Part shown: piece after piece, positions 3,263 through 64,000 of the stretch
Numbering within the stretch: the stretch's first letter is position 1
Layout: each line of letters starts with the position of its first letter
From: Callorhinchus milii
Taxonomy: Eukaryota
Assembly: GCF_018977255.1 (NCBI RefSeq)
Contig: NW_024704742.1
Span: 17,548,001 to 17,612,000, forward strand
Reading direction: 5' to 3'
Length of the DNA stretch: 64,000 bases
Notes under the pieces: generated by a model
What the model was told of the DNA's origin: nothing
Databases searched by the model: none
Seen by the model: the letters and a program-made list of their open reading frames with translations, nothing else
Position numbers and translations under genes: made by a program

Positions 3263-3420
3263 GTAGAATCTTACAGCACAGAAGGAGGCAATTCTGTCCA
3301 TCGTGCCTATGCTAATTCTTTGAAAGAACTATCCAATTATCCCCTGCCTTTTACCCATAGCTTTGCAACTTTTCAAGCATTTATCCAATTCCTTTTTAAA
3401 AGTTATTGTTGAAACTTCTT
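3263..3420 (-). mobile_element. CR1 LINE 3' end fragment
   Basis: Reverse complement of the CR1 3' end at 46880-46966 (tagaatcttacagcacagaaggaggc…ctttgaaagaactatccaat). Confidence 0.75.
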
Positions 3421-3889
3421 CCTTTTGATGGTACATGTGGTTTTCTCCACTACTTTCCATTTTACATCAAGTTTTTATATAGGTATTTAATTTGAACAGT
3501 TCAAATTCAGAACATTCAGAACGGGGTGGGAGGTATAAGGCCTGACTCTGTGTAACATATTCAATGTGGACAGTTGTCAAGATGTCTCAAACGGCCTCAC
3601 AGGATTTTACTGTGAAGTGTAGTGGCTATCTATTTTATATGTATTTTGAAGATATTAAAGATATTTCATATACTGATTACTTGTGGTGATATAACACATT
3701 GGTGTTGTTCCATCCCCCATCCTCTAAATTCAAGATTCTCATCCTCACTTTCAAGTGTTTCCATGGCCTTACCATACCCTACCTCTGTGACCGTCTGTGA
3801 TCCTACTGCCCTACACACTGGAGGAGCCTGAGGAGCACTGGAAAGGAAACTCAAGAAAAGGCATAAATCATGTCCCCTCCATTTTTCTC

Positions 3890-12735: not shown

Positions 12736-13063
12736 GGAGTCCTGTAGCTCAGTGGTTAGAGTACTCGCCTTCCAAGCGAGACACCAGGGTTCAATTCCTG
12801 GCAGGGCGAAACCTTGGGCAAGTTTCCTTACTCTACACGCCTAATAATAATCCCTCCAAAACAAAAAACAATAATAAATTGGTCATTTTCAATCCACGAC
12901 TGTTTGTGGGACACTGCTGTGCGCCATTGGCTGCCGCGTTTCGCCCACAAATATACGGTCAATTCACTTTACAGTCTATTCTGTGAAGCGCTTGAGATGT
13001 CGAGAAGACATGAAAAGCGCTATATCAATTTCAAGGATTATTATTATTTATTTATTATTATTA
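12736..13063 (+). mobile_element. SINE family A, short (internally deleted) form
   Basis: GGAGTCCTGTAGCTCAGTGGTTAGAG A-box and GGTTCAATTCC B-box; lacks the ctgtttacctagcag segment. Confidence 0.92.
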
Positions 13064-20409: not shown

Positions 20410-20812
20410 GGAGTCTCGTAATGTAGTCGTTAATACACTTGCCTTGCAAGCAAGAGGACCCGGGTTCAATTTCCGGGCAGGGTGAAACCTTCAGCAAAAT
20501 TCCTTCCTCCACATGCTCTGTTTACTTAGCAGTAAGTTGGAACCTGGTTGATAGTTGATTGGCGAATCGCTTTCTGGGGATAATAATCCCTCCAGAAAAA
20601 AAGTTTATTTTTCACTCAATCCATGACTGTTTGTGGGCCAATACTGTGCACAATTAACTGCCGCATTTCGCCCATGAAATATGAATTCCATCCACTTTAC
20701 AATAAATGCTGTGAAACGCTTTGAGACGACTTACAATATATATTCTGTGAAGTTCTTTGAGAAGTCTCAATGACGTGACAAGGCGCTATATCAAATGCAA
20801 GGTTATTATTAA
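20410..20812 (+). mobile_element. SINE family A, long form with a duplicated tail segment
   Basis: Head ggagtctcgtaatgtagtcg…gggttcaatttcc; the ttacaata…ctgtgaa…ctttgaga segment occurs twice. Confidence 0.88.
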
Positions 20813-21874: not shown

Positions 21875-22244
21875 AGACTCCTGTAGCTCAGTGGTTAGAG
21901 CGCTCGCCTCGCAAGAGAGAGACCTGGGTTTGATTCCCGGTAGGGCGAAATGTTGGGCACCCTTCCTTAAACAGAATCCACACGCCTCTGTCTACCTAGC
22001 AGTAAGTAGCAAACTGGTTGTTAGTCAATTGGTGGATCGCTTTTGCAGGGATAAATAATCCTTCAAAAAAAAATAATTTGGTCACTCAATCCACGACTGT
22101 TTGTGGGACACTGCTGTGCGCAATTGGCTGCCGCATTTCGCCCACAAATATAGTCAATTCACTTTACAGTATATTCTGTGAAGTGCTTTGAGACGTCTAG
22201 AAGACGTAAAAAACATTATATCAAGTGCAAGGTTTATTATTATT
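21875..22244 (+). mobile_element. SINE family A, long form
   Basis: ctcctgtagctcagtggttagagcgctcgcctcgcaagagag: anticodon arm with a CGC (Ala) loop; full body and tail. Confidence 0.92.
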
Positions 22245-23050: not shown

Positions 23051-24792
23051 CTAGGAAAATAACTTAAAACACTTTGCAGAGTCTGAGTGGGAGCCCATGC
23101 TGGGCAGGAGGTGACCAAAGATTAAATGAAAAAGATAGATTTTTAAGACAGCTTTTGAAAGCAGGGAGGGAAAGAGGGAGTTGGAGGGATTTAGAGAGAG
23201 AGTTTCGGAGAGTTGGCACAAAGTGGCAGAAAGCTCACCCATCTTCTCCCAGACCTGTGTCATTGTGGTTGGATAACTAGAAGCTGCTCTGAAGCACGTC
23301 TTTGTACTGCAATTTAGTTTGCTCTTCAGGCAGTAAGATGAACAATGAAAGAATAATAAGCTTCGCCAATTTGTTCTCAAGCGTTTATAAATAGCTCCAG
23401 TGATATTTATAGCTCTTAGCTCAAATCAACACAACCAAAACAACTTGCATATGTACATATAGCGCCATTCATGTAACACAAACTCTCAAAACACTTGCTT
23501 TAACAAATAGTTCACAGAAAGTGTGGGGCAGGATAACCCTGCAAACTGTGGTTTTCTCTCCTGCTGCAAATGTCAGCAAGTTGGCACCAGCTGTTTCTAC
23601 CAGCTTCCTGCAACTTTCCCAGATTTGTAGCCCAGTCAAGCTCTTTCCTCCTGCCTCTAATTAACAATGGGAGTAAATAATCCCTTTGCATTTAGACTTG
23701 ACCACATAGCGAGCAACTGGAAATTTGTAAAACAAAAGCAGAATAGCAGCTCAAGTGTAAATGGAGGTGCTAATTAATGGCTTGACAGTAACTTTTTATC
23801 AGGCTCTGACAGCTGTTGCCTGACTTTGTGCCAAGCCCTTTGGTTCAGAGATTTCCTCAATGCTGCTTCTCTCTTATTCAGATTACCAGTAGTTCAGGTA
23901 GACTATCTCTCAAGGCAACTGAAATTATAACTTGAAAAGGATTGCACAAGCAACAACAACTTGCATTTATATAGCGCCCTTCATGTAGGGTAGGCTCCTG
24001 CAGTGCTTACAAGCAATCTGGTTCTCATTTTATTTACCGTGGGTTTAGGTACAACACAACCATCACAAGTGCAGATATAGAACCATAGAACTTCAGAACA
24101 TAGAAGAAAGCCATTCGGCCCATCGTGTCCTTGTTGGCTCTTTCAGGGAACAATTCATTTAGCTGTATTTACCTGCCTTTTCAGATTTCTATTTTCCTCT
24201 TGAAAGCTATTATGGATCCTGCCTCAATTACCACTCCCGACAGGGCATTCCTCATCCTAACATCCCAACAAAATGGTAACGGTCAGAAAACCTGATCACT
24301 ACGGGACGGACGTGTACTTGTAAAAGGCAGTCAAAATATTAATTACATTTAGTGTAGCGCCTTTCTTGTTGGGAGGACATGTAAAACCACTTCACAAGAT
24401 TTACTATAAAGTATAGTGATTATGTATTTTGAACAAAAGGCAAAATACTGCAGATGCTGAAAATCTGAAACAAAACAGAAGTCGCCGGGAACACTCAGCA
24501 GGTCAGGTAGCATCTATGGAGAGAGGACAGTTTCAGGTCATTGACCTTTTATCAGAACTCTTCAATTAATGTTTCATTTCGTGTATTTTGAACATCCTGG
24601 CAGAGGTTCACGTTGGTCTCCCCTGACTTGCCAGATAGCACAATTTATTAGTTTTCAAACGTTTTGCCATTTGTTCTTTGTGTTTGAATATCTGATTCTG
24701 GCAATGACTTGAGTTGCAGCAGAAAACTTTCAGATTCTCGACCACTATAATGCCACTGTTAACCGTTTTATTCTCTCCCTTTGTCTTTCCAG

Positions 24793-27131: not shown

Positions 27132-27292
27132 GTCACCCTGGGTGTCCGACACATGCAGAAACCCATCACCGTGCATAAGAGTATCGACACCAGACTGAGA
27201 GTTCCACGTATGCCACCTACATGTAGAAATTTCTCTTGTCTGAAATGGGATGTGCACTCTCTCCCTGGAGGGAGACACTCTGCTTATCTGTT
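27132..27292. mobile_element. Unclassified element C, truncated copy
   Basis: gggtgtccgacacatgcagaaacccatcacc…ctctctccctggaggga shared with 29660, 41007 and 56266. Confidence 0.85.
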
Positions 27293-29659
27293 TCTGGTGA
27301 GCAGGTGAAGGCCAAATAGGTCTGACAAGCCTGTCATTTTTTAAAAATTCTATCTCATCCTCAAGCTTTACGTTCTTTTAAGAAAAGAAAGTGAAAGAAA
27401 AAAAAAGGGTTAGGTTGAGACAAACAGGCATGTTATTTTGAGCTGTCTTTCAATCTAGCCTGGAGAACAAGGATGACAGTGCTGACTGCTCTGTCGTGCT
27501 GGAAATACTTACTGAGTGCACTGTGCACTCAGCACAAACCGAGCTTTAGGGCAAAGCACTTATAGAGTAACGTCCAATAGACTTTTCACAAATACCCATA
27601 ATATTTGTGGGGTTGAATAATACATTAATGGTTGCACAAGGAGTATCCCATTTTTATTTCTCTGTGCATGCTTTTAAGGGAGAAGGGATAAGAATCCTTA
27701 CAATTTGTATTTTCCTTCCACAAGAAACCATATTTTTATATTTGTTCACCTCTTGTACTTGTGTCAGTTCTATTGACTCACTTCTGAGCTTCACAGGTTA
27801 TATTGCCTATGTGTATTGATTTGGCTAAATGTATGTATAAATTGATGTATGTTTCAGAGTTAGATCGGTTGTGCTCCCACAGTTTCTGTGTTGAATATAG
27901 TGCCCAGGGCCGATTTGTATCCCTCCCGCAATCCTGAATTTAGTGGCTGCTATTTCATTTTGAATTACTACGATTAGTGGATTTTTTCCTTGATGTAATA
28001 TAGTAATACAGTACACAGCCAAGAATAGAAAACACAGCTTCGAGCTCCCCCCAATGGCTCAGCAAGTGTATCCAGTGATACTGATGCTGACACTGAGCTG
28101 TATCATGTAGACCAGAAAGTCTTATGTTAGCTCCTTAAGGTAATATCTGGAGCAGAATTAAGGGCTAAGGTTGGGCTCTGACAATGCTCCAAATTAGTGA
28201 AATACTAAAGAGTAAGAAGGAACTGTAGAACCTCACCTGTTAGAAGAAAGTTGAGAAGACAAAGCTGGAAGAATGTCATGATCCTAATGTCTTTGGAAAA
28301 GCAGTCATATATTTGGGGGGATAATATTCTTAATTATTGTTTAAGACATTTTGTTCTTTATTGTGGCCAGGGATAGTTAACTCAATGTGTTTCGGAATAA
28401 AACAATGTTGCCCCTTTGTCAATGAGCTTAATTCATTTTTATTTGGGTGGAAACTTTGCTGAGAGAGAGGCTAAATCAGGCAGATTTCGTATCCGTGAGA
28501 TCCCATCTTGTTGTGGAAGGGTCTTCCATAGATTTTCCCTATCAAAAGTGGATTTCATGGGTTGGCACCTTCATGATTGTCTGACCGACCCTTTCCCCAT
28601 TTAAGGACTCAGACTGGATATTCAGGGACTGATTTTTTCAGGCAGGCTGGGCTTTACAATGGAACTAAGGAGGATCCACTGTCTTAAGCGTAGTGACTCT
28701 GTAACTGTAGTGAACGCAGAAGTCAGTTTGTACACAGCAAAGTCCACAAACAGCCAGGAGGAGAATAACCAATTTATCTGGAGGAATGTTGGTCAGAACA
28801 TTGGGAAAAACTCTCTTCTCTTTCCAAATAGTGACAAGGGTTCTTTAAATGATCATCTGAACAGGCAGATAAGGCCTCGGTGCAACATCTCATCCAAAGA
28901 ATGGCAACTCCAACAATGTAATGATCTGGGAGTTGCAGGTGCAATACAGGCTAAACTTCTGTGACAAACTCGAGGGTAAGTGTCACACCCTTCGACAGTC
29001 TTTAGTTATCGACTGCCTCAATGAATGCTTTAATCAACAATGAGATAATTAACACCAGTGATAATTAACACATCACACAGGTCACTATTTTCAGCACGGG
29101 AATCAAAGTCTGCCTCATAACCCATTTTAGCACATTGTTTTAAAATAGCAGATATTCCTCATGAGTGCCCATTACCTTTTAACTGAAGCAACTGAAGACC
29201 ATAATAATATTAATTAATTTAAAAGTCCTTTGCCTGAAACTATTCCCATTTTTTATTAGAGGTTATTATTAGGTTATTGCTGGGAATTAATGATGTTCTG
29301 TGCATTGAAAGTATGATCTTTCACCTCTATAATCTTTAACAAGTTGCTTATAACTGAACCCAAAGGAGTTATTTATATAAGCTTGTTAACAGTTATGCTG
29401 CTAGTATTGTATGGGTGACTCTTACTCCAATTCTTTATCTGTGGCCACTTAAATAATCCTTGTCTTTTATTTAGTGCTTATAATGTCAAACACTTCAAGG
29501 AGATTCAACGGTAATTGCTGTCGAGTGTAATGACTGTGTATTTGTAGGCAAACAAGGTCACCCACTATGTGCACACCAATGCCCCACCAACAGCCATGAA
29601 TAGCCAATTTATTTAACGTTCACTGGGATACAAGGAGAAATTCCCTTCTCTTTTTTTTT

Positions 29660-30092
29660 GGTCAGCCAGGTGTCTGACACATGCAGAAACCCATCACCAC
29701 TCTTAAGAGTATCCAAACCGAACTGAGATTTCCATGTATCCCACTACACGTGGAAATCCCAGAGATAGCTTGTTGGAATGGAATGCACACTCTCTCCCTG
29801 GAGGGACACATCCTGCTTACCTAATTCCAGAAAGTATTAGGCGCAGGTTGGCAAAAGCCAAGGCTTGGTGACCCCAGAGTGTGTGTTGAGGTACAGCTGG
29901 AGTCTAACCCGCTAAAATCGTATTGACTCCTTGCCCCCAGTGCTTGGATGTACTGACATCAGCAGTGCCCTGGAATACTGTGGACCCGCCTGGCTTAGGA
30001 ATCTGACTACCGAGACAACCAGAGGGCTGGCTCGATTCCGACATTCCGTTGTCAGGCATGTCTTGGAGCCAGTTGAGCCCCAAGGAGACCCC
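29660..30092. mobile_element. Unclassified element C, internally deleted copy nested in a family B SINE
   Basis: Shares both ends with 41007-41566 and 56266-56800; the host SINE (ttcccttctc|…ttttgaatagtgcc) resumes after it. Confidence 0.88.
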
Positions 30093-31599
30093 TCTTAATT
30101 CACTTTTTGAATAGTGCCGTGGCGTTATTGACGTCCACCTGCATATATAGACGGAACCTCGTTTTAACATCTCCTCTGAACGATGACACCTCTAACAATG
30201 TGGCGCTCTCCCAGCTCTGCATTAGAGTTACATTCGGCCAGGACTTTGGAGCCCTTTAAACAGCACGCTCTGCTTGGATTAACCATGGAGACTATTACCT
30301 CAAATCTATTTCCTGAAGGTTTAATAACTGAGCAACTCTTTTGCAAGCACGAATACTTTTAGGTGTGTTAGCACCGTATTGTCAATCTCTAAAATGGCTA
30401 ACTGCTTTTCTTGTAGATCTTAAATGAATTGTTTTTCGTAACATATCTTGTTTAAACATATCTCATTTCTAAAACTAAAGCTGACTGATTATATTAATGC
30501 TGGTGTGAGGGCGGCTAATTGCAAGGCTCTAGTAATTCCTACTTGAATTGGAGGCACTGTGTTGGATTTAATTTGCCCAATCGATTTCAGCAGTGAAAGA
30601 ACATTTAAGCTGTGATGGCTCTCTGTGTTGTCATTAGCTAACAAATTGAAGCTGAAGATAAATGATTCTCTTGGTAATAACTCCAAGATTACTCGTCCCC
30701 GGTTCCGCTGGCTGCCAGCGAAGCTGCTATTGTTTGCAATGCTTTCGGTTCAGATAAATAACCAGCTTTGAGCCATGGAACAAGCAGCGATTGTTTCCAC
30801 ACTGGGGCTGATGTGCTGACAGGCAGAGCCGGGGCTGATAATTAATTGACCAGAGCGGGCCAGGCTGCCCTAACTAAATACATTTTCCCAGCCGCCCTTT
30901 CATCATGTGCTAGTTAAATTCTGGCTAGCGGGACATGTTGCCTCTTGTATCTTTTATTACCCCTCCCCCAACCCTTCCAACTCTGTGCCTGAAAGCCTTT
31001 GCTTAAATGATGAATTATCTGAGTTAGTTTGTGTGCATGGCAATGGAGGTCTCTTTTCATTCATGAGGATTCGCCATCCTGTTAGAATCACTGGAGTTGG
31101 AAGACGGTCACTGTCTTTTATCAGCTTGGTTACTAGTCGTGTGACACCGGTATCTCCGCCCAATCTCACCTGTCTATTCAAGTTCAGCGCAAGGCATGAA
31201 TAGTGGACAGGAAGCACTGCTTTCAGTTCTGTGCTCTTCAGGCTGTGGAGTCAACTGCTCAGAAGGCACAGCCAGACTGTAAACAGTGATAGTATTGACT
31301 CCCTGACCAATGACGTTCACTGTGGGAAAACAATTGAAAAGTGAAATAATCTTGTATTCAGGACCTCTGCCGCTGTACTTAGTTACAAGCCTGGATCATT
31401 ACAGATCCCAGCAATAGCAATAATAATTATTGCATTTGATATTGCACCTTATCACATAGTTGAATGAGAAGGCATGTGTCCGATTATAATAGATAATAAT
31501 CCATATGTTTGATATATCGTCTTTCACATCAGAAGGACATTGCAAAGCCATCACAGGGTTTACTATTATAGCGACTATGTATTTTGTAGCTGAACACAG

Positions 31600-40586: not shown

Positions 40587-41006
40587 TGAGGGTGCATATA
40601 ATGTGGAGACCAGAATTGAACACAATACTCCAAATGTGGTCTATCCAAGTTTTTGTACAAATTCAACATCACCTCCTCACTTTTATATTCTCTCCCTCTG
40701 GACATAAACTTCTATGCAGTGCAGAGGGTGTGCTGTATTATGGAGGTGCCATCAACTTAAATCTGATGTTTCAACCGATGCATTAGTGTGCTAATTTTCA
40801 TATCAAATCTGTTGTAAAATGTCACTTTTTTCACCCCAATTTTGGATGTTGGGTCAAACGTGCTCTCAGTAACTGGCTCAGGCTGAAGCTCCGATGCTGA
40901 TGACATCTCATATATGGGACATAATAGCAATGGGAGCAAAACAAATCAACTGCTACCAATGCTGGATTATGTTTTAGGATATTCCAGAGCTGGTTATTTT
41001 GTTTCA

Positions 41007-41566
41007 TTAGCCAGGTTTCTGACACGTGCGGAAGCCCATCACCATATTTAAAAGTATTCATTTATCAGACCCATCTATGGAAACTCCCAAGGTATTTATT
41101 GGAATGAAATGCACACTTTCTTCCTGCAGGGAAACATCTTGCTTACCTAATTTCAGAAGATATGAGGCACAGGTTGGCAAGAGCCAAGGCTTGGGGACCC
41201 AGTTTTATCGCTAGGGTCTTGCTGGAGTCTAACCAGCTAAAACTGCATATTTTACCATTGAGAACACTGCCTAGCAAGCTTTCCCACTGTTTGTCCAGCT
41301 AGGAGCACCCCCCCACCCCCTTTAGGGCTTTGGCTTGCAGGTAATGATGGCTGAATTGGAAAAATTCCTGCCCCTAGTGACTTTCCAAGTTCTACCAATG
41401 AGCCAGCCTTAAAATGTGCTGTCATTTGTAATGCCCTGGAGAACTGTGGACTCGCTTGGCTCAGGAACTGGACTACCAAGACCGCCACAGGAGGCAGGAC
41501 TCATTTCTGACATTCTGTTGCTAAACATGTCATCTTAGAGCCAATTCAATTCCAAGGGGACCCCCC
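41007..41566. mobile_element. Unclassified element C, full-span diverged copy
   Basis: agccaggtttctgacacgtgcggaagcccatcacc … tggctcaggaactggactacc … tccaaggggacccc. Confidence 0.85.
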
Positions 41567-41689
41567 ACCAGGAGATAGTCACCAGTGGGTCAAGAGCTAA
41601 AAGCAGCTGTTGGTGTTCACATCCCACCTCAATCACTCTGTAGGACGATGTCCATAGCACAGGCAGGCAGCACTGAAGCAATGGTATCT

Positions 41690-42027
41690 CATTCAAATCT
41701 CTCTGTGGCCTTGCCCACCCTACCTCTGTGACTGCCTCGGAATCCAACTGCCCTGGCCGCTCTCTCCGCTCAGCAATCACCAGCCGCCTTCATGTTCCCC
41801 TGTCCGATTCATTTTGCCATCTGTAGAACTGCATTCCAGAGTCCTTCCAACTCACCAACTCCCTCCCCACTTTTAGGACCTTAAGACTGCCTTAAGACCT
41901 ATAATTTTGATCACACTTTCAGTCACCTTCTCCCCCCACATCCTACACATGCTCAGATGTTGTGCAAAGTGCTTTGAACATCTTTCACACATGAAAGGCG
42001 CCATGTTATGTAAATTGTTGTTGTTGT
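41690..42027 (+). mobile_element. L2 3' fragment, old
   Basis: tggccttgcccaccctacctctgtgac…cttaagactgccttaagacc; tail tgaaaggcgcc…(TTG)n. Confidence 0.75.
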
Positions 42028-46050: not shown

Positions 46051-46966
46051 AGCTAAGCTAGGAAAAGTAGTAAACGGTGAGGCGGATAGTAGCAGACTGC
46101 AAGAGGACATAGACAGACTGGTAAAATGGGCAGACACGTGGCAGATGAAGTTTAATGGAAGAAATGCAAAGTGACGCATTTTGGGAGGAAGAATGAGGAG
46201 AGGCAATATAAGTTGATTGTACAATCTTAAAGGGGGTGAAGGAACAGAGAGACCTGGGGGTTCATATCAGTAAATCTTTGAAGGTGGCAGGACAGCTAGA
46301 TAAAGCTGTTAGAAAAACATACGGGATATCAGGCTTTAAAAATAGGGGGATAGAATACAAAAGTCAAGAAGTTATGATGAACCTTTATAAAACACTGGTT
46401 CGGCCTCAGCTACTAGAGTGCTCTGTTCAGTTCTGGGCACCACACTTTAGGAAGGATGTCAAGGCATTGGAGAGGGTGCAAAGGAGATTTACCAGGATGG
46501 TACCAGGAATGAGGGACTTCAGTTATCAGGAGAGAGTAGAGAAGCCAGGATTATTCTCCTTGGAGCTGAGAAGTTTAAGAGGAGACTTAGTAGAAGTTTT
46601 AAAGAGTATGAGCGGATTCGATGGAGTGAACAAGGAGAACCTATTTCCACTGGCGGGTGGGTCGGTAACCCGAGGGCACCGATTTAAAATAGTTGTTAAA
46701 AGAAACAGAGGGGAGGTGAGGAGAAATTTTTTCACACAGCGAGTTGTTTAGATCTGGAATGCATTGCCTGAAAGGGCGGTGGAAGCCGGTTCGACAACAA
46801 CTTTTAAAAGAGAAGTAGATAATTATTTGAGGAGGACAGGTTTGCAGGGCTATGGGGAGAGCGCGGGGAAGTGGGATTGATTTAGATGGCTCTTTTCAAA
46901 GAGCCGGCACAGACACGATGGGCCAAATGGCCTCCTTCTATGCTGTATAATTCTATAATTCTATGA
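46051..46966 (+). mobile_element. CR1 LINE 3' fragment (~0.9 kb)
   Basis: RLQEDIDRLVKWADTWQMKFN, RDLGV, LYKTLVRPQL, VQFWAPHFRKDVKALERVQRRFTRM, FFTQRVV; ends in (ATTCTATA/G) repeats. Confidence 0.95.
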
Positions 46967-54584: not shown

Positions 54585-54905
54585 TAATAATAATAATAAT
54601 AATCCTTGCATTTGTTATAGCGCTTTTCACATCTTCTAGATGTCTCAAAGCACTTCACAGAATAGACTGTAAAGTGAATTGACTGTATATTTGTGGGTGA
54701 AATGTGGCAGCCAATTGCGCACAGCAGTGAGTGTCCCACAAACAGTCGTGGATTGAAATAATCAATTTATTATTTTTTTCTCTGGAGGGATTATTATCAG
54801 GTGTGTGAAGCAAGTAAAGTTACCCAAGGTTTCACCCTGCCAGGAATCGGACCCAGGTCTCTCGCTTACAAAGCGAGTGCTCTAACCACTGAGCTACAGG
54901 ACTCC
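54585..54905 (-). mobile_element. SINE family A, short form
   Basis: (TAA)n … tctaaccactgagctacaggactcc (reverse-complemented head); lacks the internal segment. Confidence 0.92.
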
Positions 54906-56265
54906 ACATACCACCTGAACCTCTTTTGTTATGTGAACATCCATTGGTTTCAATGCTCCCTATTAACCAATGTTAGCAGCAGAAGACTAGGAGCAGGATG
55001 CCTGTTTACACTCTTGAAGGGAAGTATAGAATGTGGGATGTCATTGTTAGTACCAAAGGTGGAGATAAAGTGGAAGATAGAAAATAAATGCAAACAAAGC
55101 ACAAAAGAAAGAAAGATTCTATTGTCTGCATTACAAGCATGGAACTTGTTTAGGAGCATGGCCTTTTCTACTACTGTACTCAGTTTGCTGTTTTACACCA
55201 TCACGATGAAGAACACGCACCTTGACTATTGATTCTGCTCAGAATTCTGTTTCTTTCTCCTTACCTTCTCCTGTGCTCATTAATGCAGTTGCACCAACAC
55301 TGAGATCAATAATGTTCTGCCAGATTTGCAGACTACACCACGCTGCTCTTGAGGGCCTGGATGTCTACAAATTATCCTGTGATTTAGATTCTTAGAAATT
55401 GGAACGTAAAAGGAGGTTGTATGCCCATCAAACCTAGATTGATGCAAGCTCCTACACTGTAGTTACCTACTCATATCCCAATTCCCAACTCTTTCCCCAT
55501 ATTCTTCTATATTGCTTCTATTCAAGTACTCAGCTAGTACCCTTTTACATTTTGTTGTGGTATTAGCTTCAGTGGCCACTTGTGGCAACGTAATCCTCCA
55601 TGTTTAATACTCTTACTGCGTATGTAAATCTTCTGACCTCCATATGGATTGTTTTTAAATTCTTCTGATATAATAGTTGTCAAGTGTCTCTGCCAGCCCT
55701 GTACAACTCCACTTGTGCAGAGATTATTGGAGGCTTTAAAAGTAACCACTATACCAAGCAGTCAGCTGTTGTACCAAATGCCATTCTCCTTTCAAACAGT
55801 GTTCATATGTTGGTTCTTTTGTTGGTTCATTGTAAGGAAACACAGCATGGGGGTAGTTAAAATTGTAATAACTATTTAATATTAAACAGTAGGGATGTGA
55901 GGCTCATTGGGTTTTTAATGTGCTGATGCAACCATTTACAGGTATAGCACAAGAACATAATGTGTTCATGTATGAGTATGTGAGAGATGTAATATAAATC
56001 ATCACTTGTGACAGTTCTGACATCCAGAACTACAGCAGGTTATTGAAGCTGAAAGATGCATCATAATTTATCAATCGCTGTGACTTTGCCCTGTTGGGTC
56101 AGATGTAGAGTTGCAATTTAGCCTTTCTCAGCCCCTGAAGTGTCAAAGGCCAGGTGCGCAAAACCTTCTCTCTGCTTCTTGTGTGTCACTTCAGTGGTGA
56201 AGAGTCTCTGAAATTCTTGAAAATGAATATATTAATGTGCAACTGAAAAAAATCTCCAGATTTTC

Positions 56266-56800
56266 GGTCAGCCGGGTGTCTGACACATCACCATGCTGAA
56301 GAGTATCCAAACCGAACTGAAAATTCCATGCATCCCACCTACACATAGAAATCCCGAAGATAGATAGTTGGAATGCAAAGTGCGCTCTCTCCCTGGAGGG
56401 ACACATCCTGCTTACTTAATTCCGAAAGTATTAAATGCAGTATGGGGAGCCCAGGTTGTGTGTTGGGGTACTGTTGGAGTCTAACTAGCTAAAAATGTAT
56501 AGCTTGCCATTGATAGCACTGTCTGGCAAGATTTCCCAGCGAGGACCATCCCACCCGTTAGGGCTTTGGCTTGCACGATTAGCAGGATCTGAGTGGGCAG
56601 ATTCCCTGCCCCCAGTGACTGGTCTGCCCTTCCAAGTCTTACGGAAGAGCTAGGCTGTCATCAGCTGTTCCCTGGAATACTGTGGATCCGCCTGGCTCAG
56701 GAACTGGACTACCGAGACCGCCACAGAGGGCTGGTTTGATTCCGACATTCCATTGTCTAAACATGTTGCCTTGGAGCCGGTTCAGCTCCAAGGAGACCTC
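56266..56800. mobile_element. Unclassified element C, full-span copy
   Basis: ggtcagccgggtgtctgacac … ccttggagccggttcagctccaaggagacc; abuts an L2 3' tail at 56801-56942. Confidence 0.88.
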
Positions 56801-58382
56801 ATTTTTGGTCACCTTTACGTCTCCCCCCACTTCCCTTAGCTCCCCAACCCCAGCTCGGGCTCCCGATCGCCTCTTTGAAGCACTTTGAGACATCCTCCTG
56901 ACATGAAAGGTAAACGTAAAACCATTATTGTTGTTATTGTTGAGAAGCGAGTTTTTCTCCCTGGTTTCGTAGCCGAAAATCATCCAAATAAAACTCACTT
57001 GGTGGTTGTCTGTGAGACAGTGCTGAGTACGAGGTGTTTGCCTATAAATACACAGTCATTAGGTGAGCACAATTGCACCCTTTAATAACTGTTTGGAAAG
57101 CAAATCCTTATCCTCTTACCCTTTAGTTGCTGTTTACAGAAAGGCAGGTTACCATGGACACGGGAATCCCTTTGTGAACTCTGGAGCTTGGTTGAGATGA
57201 GACTCCTCTTCCCTTAAGAGCCGGAGGAAACTTTGAATATTAAACCAACGGGTTTGCGATGGGAAGAAAAAAAATCAGGAGAGGCTCGGATTATTTTCTA
57301 CGTTGGTGTTCAGAGGTCTCAGGCCTGATTCCTTCAGCCGGCCCCCTCCATGTTGTTCAGAATGAACGGACGTGAAGCGGGGGAGGGAGTTTTGCGTTGA
57401 TTGCGGTGACACCACAGTGCATGTTGGTGCAACAGCCAGTTATAAAGAGTGCACCTCGGTCCAAGCTGTGTTTCGTGGCAAATCAGTGCTAATTGTTTGG
57501 CATTTTGCCAGCTGTCAGCTCGCAAATTTGAGCCTCATTTTAACAAAGTAAGCCTTGAAGTGTTGGAACATTTGAACTCTACATCCGTTCACTTTCATAA
57601 AGGCAAACCATGCAGAAAGCCTGACCTTCTGAGAGAAAGCCTGCGGTTCATTTGTTATAAAAATGTTTTGCTTTTCACTCAGTGGGTGCACTCAATTGGA
57701 AAAAAGGACTGACAGGCACCTCTTGGCTTCTGTTTGGTGCTGTAGCCTTTCCTTTCATTGCTTGAGCGCTGGCTCCCTCATGCACTCAAGTCTGTTGTGC
57801 TGCTGGTTTGCTGCATTCCTGGTCCTGGCTGGTGTGAGTGTGTGAGTGAGTGCGAGTTTGGATTGAAAACACTGAATGTGTGTGCATCACCGTACTTTTA
57901 GGCTACATCTGAGGCATTGGTCCAATCAGGCCTTGATGGCCCAACGTAAAATGATTCCCCCACCCCCACCTCTCAGTTGAACTCAATGGGATGTTACTAT
58001 TTTCATCATCACATCGTAAGAGTGTGAAAAGCGCCAGAGATTGGTCAGCATCGAATGAGGTCGCTGTTTTTAAAATTTAATCTTTTAGCAATTTTTGTGT
58101 ATGAGAATGTGTATGTGTGTGTCTGCAGAGGGAGTGGGTTTCATTGAAAAGATCATGGACCCACTTTGCTCAATTCTAAAGGGATATAGACTAAAAGGAA
58201 ACAGCTATTTGGCAATAAAAATAAGTGGTGTGAGAGATTGGTTAGTGTACTGTAGCTTATATAATATATTTTGTCACAACATTCAAAAGATATGCTTCTA
58301 CTTTCTGAGACCAAAGCAAAAACAACTTGCATTTAGATAGTGCCCTCCACGTAGGGTAACATCTTGGAGTACTAAATTCCAT

Positions 58383-58545
58383 GTCAGCCTGGCCCAGTTG
58401 ATAACACTCACCTCTGAGTCAAAAGGTTGTGGGTTCAAGACCCACATCAAGACATTGAGTTCATAATCTAGACTGACACTCAAGTGCAGTGCTGCAAAGA
58501 CTGCTGCATTGTGAGAGTTGCCGTCCTTCAGATGAGACGTTAATC
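58383..58545 (+). mobile_element. SINE family B, 5' part
   Basis: gtcagcctggcccagttgataacactcacctctgagtcaaaaggttgtgggttcaagacccac tRNA-like head. Confidence 0.8.
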
Positions 58546-60406: not shown

Positions 60407-60743
60407 GGAGTCCTGTAGCTTAGTGGTTAGAGCACTCGCTTTGCAAGTGAGAGACCTGAGTTCAATTCCAGGCAGGGCGAAACCTTGGGCAAGTTTCCTT
60501 ACTCCACACGCCTAATAATAATAATCCCTCCAAAAAACCCCAAAACAATAATTAAATTGGTCATTTTCAATCTACGACTGTTTGTGGGACATTGCTGTGC
60601 GCAATTGGCTGCCGCGTTCGCCCACAAATATACAGTCAATTCACTTTACAGTGTGCTCTGTGAAGCGCTTTGGGACGTCCTCCTGACGTGAAAAGCGCTA
60701 TATCAAATGCAAGGATTATTATTATTATTATTATTATTATTAT
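60407..60743 (+). mobile_element. SINE family A, short form, nested in a minus-strand family B SINE (~60210-60791)
   Basis: Intact A/B boxes, long pure (TTA)n tail, aactt on both sides (60402-60406 and 60744-60748). Confidence 0.95.
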
Positions 60744-63410: not shown

Positions 63411-64000
63411 AGCGAGGAGGATAGTAGCAGACTGCAAGAGGACATAGACAGACTGGTAAAATGGGCAGACACGTGACAAATGGTGTTTAATGTAGAGAAA
63501 TGCGAAATGATGGATTTTGGGAGGAAGAATGAGGAGAGGCAATATAAGCTGATGGTAAAATGTTAAAGGGGGTGAAGGAACAGAGACCTGGGGGTTCATA
63601 TAAGTTAATTTTTTGAAGGTGGCAGGACAGGTGGATAAAGATTTAAAGAAAAACATACGGGATACTAGGCTTTATAAATAGGAGCATAGAATACAAAAGT
63701 CAGAAACTCATGATGAACCTTTATAAAATACTGATTAGGCCTCAGCTAGAGTGTTGTGTTCAGTTCTGGGCACCACATTTTAGGAAGCATGTCAAGGCAT
63801 TGGATAAGGTGCAAAGGAGATTTACCAGGATGATAGCAGGAATGAGGGACTTCAGTTATCAGGAGAGGCTAGAGAAGCTAGGATTATTCTCCTTGGAGCA
63901 GAAAAGGTTAAGAGGAGACTTAATAGAATTTTTCAAAAATTATGAGGGGATGGGGTGAACAAGGAGAAACTATTTCCACTGGTGGGTGGGTCGGTAACTC
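63411..64000 (+). mobile_element. CR1 LINE 3' fragment running off the window end
   Basis: MMNLYKILIRPQLECCVQFWAPHFRKHVKALDKVQRRFTRM…LEKLGLFSLE; closely similar to 46078-46670. Confidence 0.95.

Follow-up and report, generated by a model that had tools for sequence, protein, structure and literature searches.

A family of four related copies in a repeat-rich window

The element at 56 kb (c56) is one of four homologous copies of an interspersed repeat in the window, by which we mean the whole 64,000-nt stretch of DNA analysed; the others are named c41, c29 and c27 after their positions (Table 1). All four lie in one orientation, for which the chance expectation is 1 in 8. An earlier reading of this DNA (the sequence-only reading) had proposed these four same-orientation copies, a left end common to all of them and a right end common to three. 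We confirmed each of these points, with coordinates differing by 2-3 nt at most, and a profile search found no fifth copy in the 64-kb window. The full unit is ~590 bp long. Pairwise identity among the copies is 0.65-0.84 over aligned columns, and together they occupy 1,687 of the 64,000 bases (2.6%). The gap of ~110 nt in c29 lies mid-element (29923-29953 region) and includes a 9-bp internal stem, while c56 has lost 17 nt and 12 nt at other places.

The surrounding vertebrate DNA is rich in repeats: the window contains fragments of L2 and CR1-like elements as well as two sorts of tRNA-head SINE, which we took to be CORE-SINE and SacSINE1-like. Five tRNA-like heads of the common SINE (12738-12809, 21877-21948, 54832-54903, 60409-60480 and 20419-20476) scored above the Rfam tRNA cut-off, and three common-SINE heads were called as tRNA genes (Gly, Thr and Ala) by ARAGORN, which are false tRNA calls. 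The heads of the older tRNA-SINE (A boxes at 58390, 21418, 15594 and 9412) start with a GTCAGCC-like motif, whose resemblance to the plus-strand left end of the family is probably due to chance. Two CR1-like fragments, at 46079-46751 (with a 179-aa open frame lacking a Pfam match) and 63414-63998, are 88% identical over 595 bp, and another small interspersed repeat occurs at 3264-3422, 46781-46964 and 24077-24143 with 69-79% identity. Directly to the right of c56, and outside the family, lies a short L2-type 3' tail on the plus strand (56848-56945); the intervening 56803-56847 may also be decayed L2. Beside c41, ~120 nt (41564-41685) separate the 5' end of the copy from an L2 3' fragment (about 41685-42027) and could be either an upstream extension of c41 or unrelated host DNA. 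One of the two tRNA-head SINEs, with an alanine-like head, an L2-type end and an ATT tail, fits the Callorhinchus SINEs of PMC5499810, compared by description only.

Table 1. Copies of the family and associated sequence features (5' and 3' refer to the inferred minus-strand RNA)
Feature	Position	Strand	Remarks
Copy c56	56266..56798	-	Full-length, small internal deletions
Copy c41	41005..41563 (about)	-	Most diverged of the three long copies
Copy c29	29660..30090	-	Both ends kept, one internal deletion of ~110 nt; host is an older tRNA-head SINE
Copy c27	27132..27295	-	3' part of the minus-strand RNA only (160-185 nt); 5' truncation or deletion
Left 11-bp direct repeat of c56	56260..56270		One mismatch; overlaps element 3' end
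Right 11-bp direct repeat of c56	56801..56811		
Left 10-bp target repeat of c29 with four extra T	29646..29659		Extra T taken as a minus-strand A-tail
Right 10-bp target repeat of c29	30099..30108		One mismatch; 8 nt from element 5' end
A-rich tail or target of c41	40995..41004	-	8/10 T on the plus strand
5'-terminal hairpin of inferred RNA	56765..56797	-	9 perfect pairs, 56769-56777/56785-56793
Internal stem	56501..56532	-	7 bp in c56; 9 bp with majority letter at 56531
Internal stem near 3' end	56321..56353	-	Two broken pairs mended by majority letters at 56321 and 56347
3'-terminal stem-loop	56267..56284	-	5 bp, 8-nt loop, directly before A-rich tail
A-box-like motif of c56	56693..56707	+	Antisense to inferred RNA
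B-box-like motif of c56	56733..56743	+	1 mismatch; 40 nt after A box
A+B pair of c29	29991..30039	+	A box at 29991, B box at 30029, 38 nt apart

Abundance and age

At 80% likeness, positions 56050-57010 were matched by 25,342 contigs in run X1 and by 15,008 in run X13, which comes from another organism; both counts take in contigs on the adjoining L2 tail. Depth in X1, summed over contigs and so no measure of copy number, was 6.9 in the left flank, 9.7e3-2.5e5 within c56 and 147 in the bin past the right end, with a fall from ~1e4 to 147 across position 56808. The family is plainly present in high copy number, with sharp ends at the 56-kb locus. We rejected the depth gradient inside the element as a truncation curve, because these are summed contig depths that dip where c56 has diverged. 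Also rejected was a plus-strand SINE ending in the L2 tail: this tail adjoins c56 only, and depth falls ~90-fold from element to tail.

One X13 contig bridges the right junction (56557-56900, with 46 other letters and 23 gaps) and one covers the left flank with 13 differences in 156. These two matches, of which the bridging one is loosely aligned, suggest that the c56 insertion is probably older than the split of the X1 and X13 organisms. A single X22 contig at 56282 runs to the element end and continues into its own reverse complement and an A7 run, and is either a fold-back artefact or an inverted junction. Contigs of a presumed-RNA run matched the stretch 379 times and those of another run 0 times, which has no bearing on expression or on absence. 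Exact-pattern scans returned 0 matches in viral contigs, 0 in prokaryote genomes and 0 and 1 in metagenome contigs; the one match (L001) was rejected as a chance match within a GC-rich bacterial coding region.

Strand polarity and traces of insertion

The sequence-only reading had seen T-rich sequence ahead of the left end, and it is on this side alone that the flanks are T-rich. T accounts for 27 of the 40 bases in the ten positions left of the four copies (empirical P = 1e-5) but for only 11 of 30 to the right of the three long copies (P = 0.28), including 0 of 10 at c41. Individual left flanks vary, with 4 of 10 T at c56 and nine T at c29. On the minus strand the T-rich side corresponds to an A-rich flank at the 3' end of the element, and it is this end that the short copy c27, one of the four, has kept.

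Target-duplication-like repeats flank two copies. The 11-bp direct repeat of c56 had a score reached by a fraction of 0.006 of 2,000 random right flanks; it takes in the last five bases of the element and may be a target duplication with 3' microhomology, in which the target would have annealed to the 3' end of the RNA. The 10-bp repeat of c29 is of low complexity, and 0.035 of 2,000 random flanks scored as high. Its empty site could be compared in seven other copies of the host SINE, which have a single T-run where c29 has one on both sides. No target duplication was found for c41, where the best score was 4 and 0.93 of random flanks were as good. The sites of c56 and c29 read, on the minus strand, as a pyrimidine followed by an A-run, which we take to be the signature of an L1-type endonuclease (Y/AAAAA).

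Two alternatives had been offered before for the origin of the family, a retroposed minus-strand RNA and a non-autonomous Helitron/Helentron-type element. The former is supported by A-richness on one flank only, by the duplication-like repeats at c56 and c29 and by the end that c27 has kept; these features argue for target-primed reverse transcription (TPRT) of a minus-strand RNA and against a Helentron. Overall, we are confident, if short of certain, that this is an old and abundant retroposon family moved by A-tail-primed TPRT.

Folding of the element and of its reconstructed ancestor

Although c56 had been described as hairpin-dense, it did not stand out from dinucleotide shuffles (fold z of -0.33 on the minus strand and -0.80 on the plus strand). 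Stems of at least 4, 5 and 6 bp numbered 38, 14 and 4, compared with 47.8, 12.2 and 3.1 in shuffles, and only the longest were exceptional, at a borderline level (at least 7 bp in 0.06 of shuffles, 9 bp in 0.045). The perfect 9-bp stem ccttggagc/gctccaagg is present at 56769-56793 as described. Several shorter stems from the same description fared less well: as written, gtgtc/gacac and ccct/aggg have loops of 1 nt and 2 nt, and the family-majority letter breaks one pair in gggcag/ctgccc (56598 C>A) and one in cttcc/ggaag (56646 A>T).

A table of differences between c56 and the family-majority letters shows 40 of 129 differences, 25 of those inside c56 and 8 of the 25 in listed stems. Majority letters restore or extend a pair at 56321, 56347, 56531 and 56767, replace a G-C by a G.U pair at 56779 (on the minus strand only) and have no effect at 56768. 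The terminal hairpin at 56765..56797, written with majority letters, has two G.U closing pairs and three outer pairs, and the fact that both G.U pairs form on the minus strand only favours a minus-strand RNA. All three long copies start at the base of this hairpin, with starts ~2 nt apart. An additional 10-bp stem at ~56635-56668, with its two arms taken from different records, is suggested by two X13 contigs and by the majority letter at 56666.

The majority sequence of the window copies gave a fold z of -2.5 to -3.0 by one recipe and of -1.7 to -2.0 by a stricter one; by the stricter recipe, the controls scored -3.9 (body and tail of the common SINE), -1.6 (L2) and +0.8 (older SINE). These values indicate a moderately structured family ancestor, about like an ordinary SINE, and the earlier description of a structured RNA holds, to a moderate degree, for this reconstructed ancestor but not for c56 itself. 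Six of 127 pairs change on both sides, against 2 of 500 shuffles, a covariation count to which we gave no weight because the structure was predicted from the same three sequences, making the test circular, and because these are decaying copies.

Searches for coding sequence and for a known RNA

No Pfam match below E 0.05 was obtained in the 12 frames scanned, in agreement with the earlier statement that the element has no coding homology; the L2 used as a control gave RVT_1 at 1e-25. The open minus-strand frame found no relative among 755 candidate proteins. A search of a representative protein library returned six matches, each with 3-10 short repeated stretches, and the two inspected were repetitive and unrelated. 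LINE coding sequence joined to a copy was not detected anywhere in the window by Pfam or protein searches. For c41 together with its 5' flank, 0 of 3 frames matched Pfam, and none of 31 candidate proteins scored against one frame of this flank. We had likened that frame to the zinc-knuckle end of a LINE, an assumption that the searches did not support.

Searches for RNA families were similarly negative. At gathering scores, Rfam reported five tRNA-like SINE heads over the window and none within the family; by E-value, c56, c29 and c41 with its flank gave one, one and three matches, all far under gathering scores. ARAGORN made no call inside the family. No match was found to the L2, CR1 or SINE tails of the window, which agrees with the sequence-only reading that an L2 or CR1 tail is absent. 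Our own descriptors for HDV-like and hammerhead ribozymes found nothing conserved across copies or in the majority sequence, with copy-specific matches only (HDV-like in c41 and c27, a hammerhead core in c56), and no conserved AATAAA precedes the A-tail. An ordinary Pol III SINE transcript is an unlikely identity for the minus-strand RNA, since T4 runs are conserved on that strand (in c56, c41, c29 and the majority sequence) and no copy carries an A+B box pair there. Since the element is not coding and showed no Rfam family, no L2 or CR1 tail, no conserved ribozyme and no sense A+B box pair, the searches point to a Pol II-type RNA, either a LINE tail or a derivative of one.

Antisense Pol III boxes

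A scan with the Pol III A/B-box consensus found 10 A+B pairs in the window on both strands (B box 30-55 nt after the A box), of which 8 are the heads of the two tRNA-SINE families. The other two lie on the plus strand of c56 and c29, antisense to the inferred RNA and near its 5' end. The pair is therefore held by two of the three copies that contain this region, while c41 keeps the A box without a B box. The B box of c29 has one mismatch, at a different position than that of c56. An A+B pair arose in 16 of 3,000 shuffles of c56, a figure that concerns one of several motifs scanned and two copies that are homologous and hence dependent. No tRNA fold forms in this region, and outside the boxes it has little in common with the SINE heads of the window (2 of 16 alignments scored 0.01 or less). 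We regard the antisense pair as suggestive.

The first downstream T4 lies at 56802 in c56 and at 30104 in c29, that is, 59 and 65 nt past the B box and inside the right target repeats, where it would end an RNA of ~120 nt; in c41 the first T4 is about 300 nt away. Candidate identities for the pair are a SINE head that was captured, a functional antisense promoter and a terminal-repeat promoter as in Helenus.

A LINE 3' tail as the preferred explanation, and its rivals

The reading we prefer, with a probability of roughly one half, is an old and very abundant non-LTR retroposon family of a holocephalan-type genome, whose RNA was most likely the folded 3' tail of a LINE, with a preferred stop at a hairpin. 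A minus-strand RNA of ~590 nt, with a small stem-loop followed by an A-rich tail at its end, would have been copied by TPRT, with an L1/Tx1-like protein presumably nicking at Y/AAAAA, priming on the A-tail and leaving duplications of 10-11 bp. The RNA most likely originated as the folded 3' untranslated tail of an APE-type LINE, or else as a non-autonomous derivative; the preferred copy end at the hairpin base might then reflect a reverse-transcription stop, RNA trimming or takeover by a derivative consisting of the tail only, and the antisense A and B boxes might be the relic of a tRNA-derived promoter caught in the tail. According to PMC3747384, L1-type proteins prime on 3' poly(A) and homology of the tail is not needed, and the elephant shark is listed in PMC4350176 among genomes whose mobile DNA is almost all retroelements. 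Against a LINE tail stands the shared 5' start of three of the four copies, which is not expected from random 5' truncation. The failure to find a conserved AATAAA, LINE coding sequence joined to a copy or a duplication at c41 also counts against it, as do the low complexity of the c29 repeat and its distance of 8 nt from the element, and the plus-strand A+B boxes are left unexplained by the TPRT model. These points draw on the only four copies readable in full.

A first rival is a SINE-like unit that stands alone and has a defined 5' end. Its RNA would be a Pol II product or would be released from longer RNAs by a cut at the 5' hairpin, its A-tail would allow mobilisation in trans, and the box pair in a master copy would yield an antisense RNA of ~120 nt. 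We consider this rather unlikely. In its favour are the 5' end at the hairpin base in three of four copies, the lack of adjoining coding sequence and an A+B pair that is present in two of three copies, is otherwise confined to tRNA-SINE heads (the other 8 pairs of the window), arises in few shuffles and is followed by T4 at a short distance in c56 and c29. On the other hand, no minus-strand promoter was identified, and the 5' end has no conserved HDV-like or hammerhead motif to explain it. The box pair is open to the reservations given above (several motifs scanned, dependent copies, no tRNA fold, little SINE-head likeness), and c41 has no B box and a distant T4. In its most specific form, such a retroposon would have an inverted layout, with a fixed 5' hairpin, no sense Pol III promoter and a Pol III promoter opposed inside its 5' end, so that each insertion would found an antisense small-RNA gene of ~120 nt ended by the T-run of its own target duplication; this we think improbable. 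Read on the plus strand, the same boxes fall within the last 110 nt and recall a solo terminal repeat, with a 420-nt upstream part and, towards the 3' end, a Pol III promoter of tRNA type like that of Helenus TRIM LTRs, or else a direct repeat of a tyrosine-recombinase retroelement integrated through short T-rich homology. Helenus LTRs hold tRNA-like boxes and are known from coelacanth, sturgeon and zebrafish (PMC10886601). The element also has 4-bp inverted ends (GGTC/GACC), the direct repeat of c56 takes in the element's own left end, and c56, c29 and the majority sequence contain no plus-strand T4, although this absence is common by chance (0.25 and 0.53 of shuffles) and c41 has two. The Helenus-type reading fails on termini (GG...CC, not TG...CA), on duplication length (10-11 bp compared with 4 bp for animal Helenus) and on size (~590 bp compared with 323 bp for the longest Helenus LTR). 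No two of the four copies surround an internal region, and the one-sided A-rich flank would require another cause, leaving a solo terminal repeat of either kind a decidedly improbable origin.

The last rival is a plus-strand DNA element of the non-autonomous Helentron/Helitron2 type, targeting T-rich sequence and having a 3' subterminal hairpin and a captured SINE head. The 9-bp hairpin indeed stops 5 nt short of the right end, T predominates in the left flank and T-runs occur near the right end in two of three copies. These features leave the Helitron/Helentron alternative of the sequence-only reading weakly supported at best: two copies have duplication-like repeats, in one case compared with the empty site in the host SINE, T is not enriched in the right flanks as a whole (least of all in c41) and the terminus is not CTRR. 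No asymmetric terminal inverted repeat was found beyond chance, the sole candidate for a subterminal inverted repeat being an 8-of-9 match found by eye and, by our estimate, expected by chance. The elephant-shark mobilome is, moreover, reported to be poor in DNA transposons (PMC4350176), and we rate this origin very unlikely.

Catalogue status and significance

No description of such a family in chimaeras was found in the literature searched, which is not proof that it is unpublished, most subscription papers and Repbase Reports lying outside the search. De novo repeat libraries exist for the elephant shark and the silver chimaera (PMC4350176, PMC12952989). Given its high abundance, the family is very likely to be present in such libraries of this genome, and it is probably catalogued at least as an unclassified repeat.

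Our findings on the family are mostly ordinary, the oddities being the shared 5' end and the antisense boxes. If the family is a LINE tail, it is ordinary genomic debris that, at 2.6% of the window, merits a library entry and can serve, through insertions held in common, to date lineages of chimaeras. Should a genome-wide consensus bear out both the fixed 5' end and the antisense boxes, the family would be a non-coding retroposon that sets its 5' end with neither a sense Pol III promoter nor a ribozyme, and a possible source of many small antisense RNAs. The inverted layout, if true, would make it a SINE-like class producing its own antisense RNA.

Comparison with known systems

L1-clade elements follow a Y/AAAAA target rule and leave target-site duplications of variable length, roughly 7-20 bp. 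The family resembles 3' UTR fragments of L1/Tx1 LINEs in its A-rich 3' end, Y/AAAAA-type site, duplication-like repeats of 10-11 bp in two copies, one apparently 5'-truncated copy and lack of homology to L2 or CR1 tails. It differs from them in that no attached ORF2 was found and in having no conserved AATAAA, one 5' end in three copies and antisense A+B boxes. With LINEs that carry a 5' HDV-like ribozyme (R2, RTE, Ingi/L1Tc and Vingi), it shares a sharp 5' end starting with G, but no complete pseudoknot is conserved across copies or in the majority sequence; what we take to be a loose resemblance to the P3-L3-P1 core of an HDV-like ribozyme lies at nt 65-90 of the family. Non-autonomous Helentron/Helitron2 elements such as DINE-1 have a subterminal hairpin and a T-rich flank. 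Unlike these, the family has duplication-like repeats in two copies, a T-rich flank on one side only and no clear asymmetric terminal inverted repeat.

The remaining comparisons involve Pol III promoters. Helenus (PMC10886601) is a TRIMp3, a kind of TRIM whose LTR contains a tRNA-like Pol III promoter. On a plus-strand reading, the family likewise has its boxes inside the repeat unit and not at its 5' start, but it has no TG...CA ends and no 4-bp duplication, shows no PBS or PPT among the four copies and is nearly twice as long as the longest LTR reported there. The tRNA-derived SINEs of Callorhinchus milii include SINE2-1_CM, SINE2-1B_CM and SacSINE1-CM (PMC5499810). In contrast to these SINEs, the boxes of the family face away from the A-tail, and it has no cloverleaf and no L2 tail; nor is it similar to the SINE bodies of the window itself. 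The C. milii SINEs are, like the family, short, non-coding and present at very high copy number in the same kind of genome, with an A+B spacing of 38-44 nt compared with 38-40 nt in the family.
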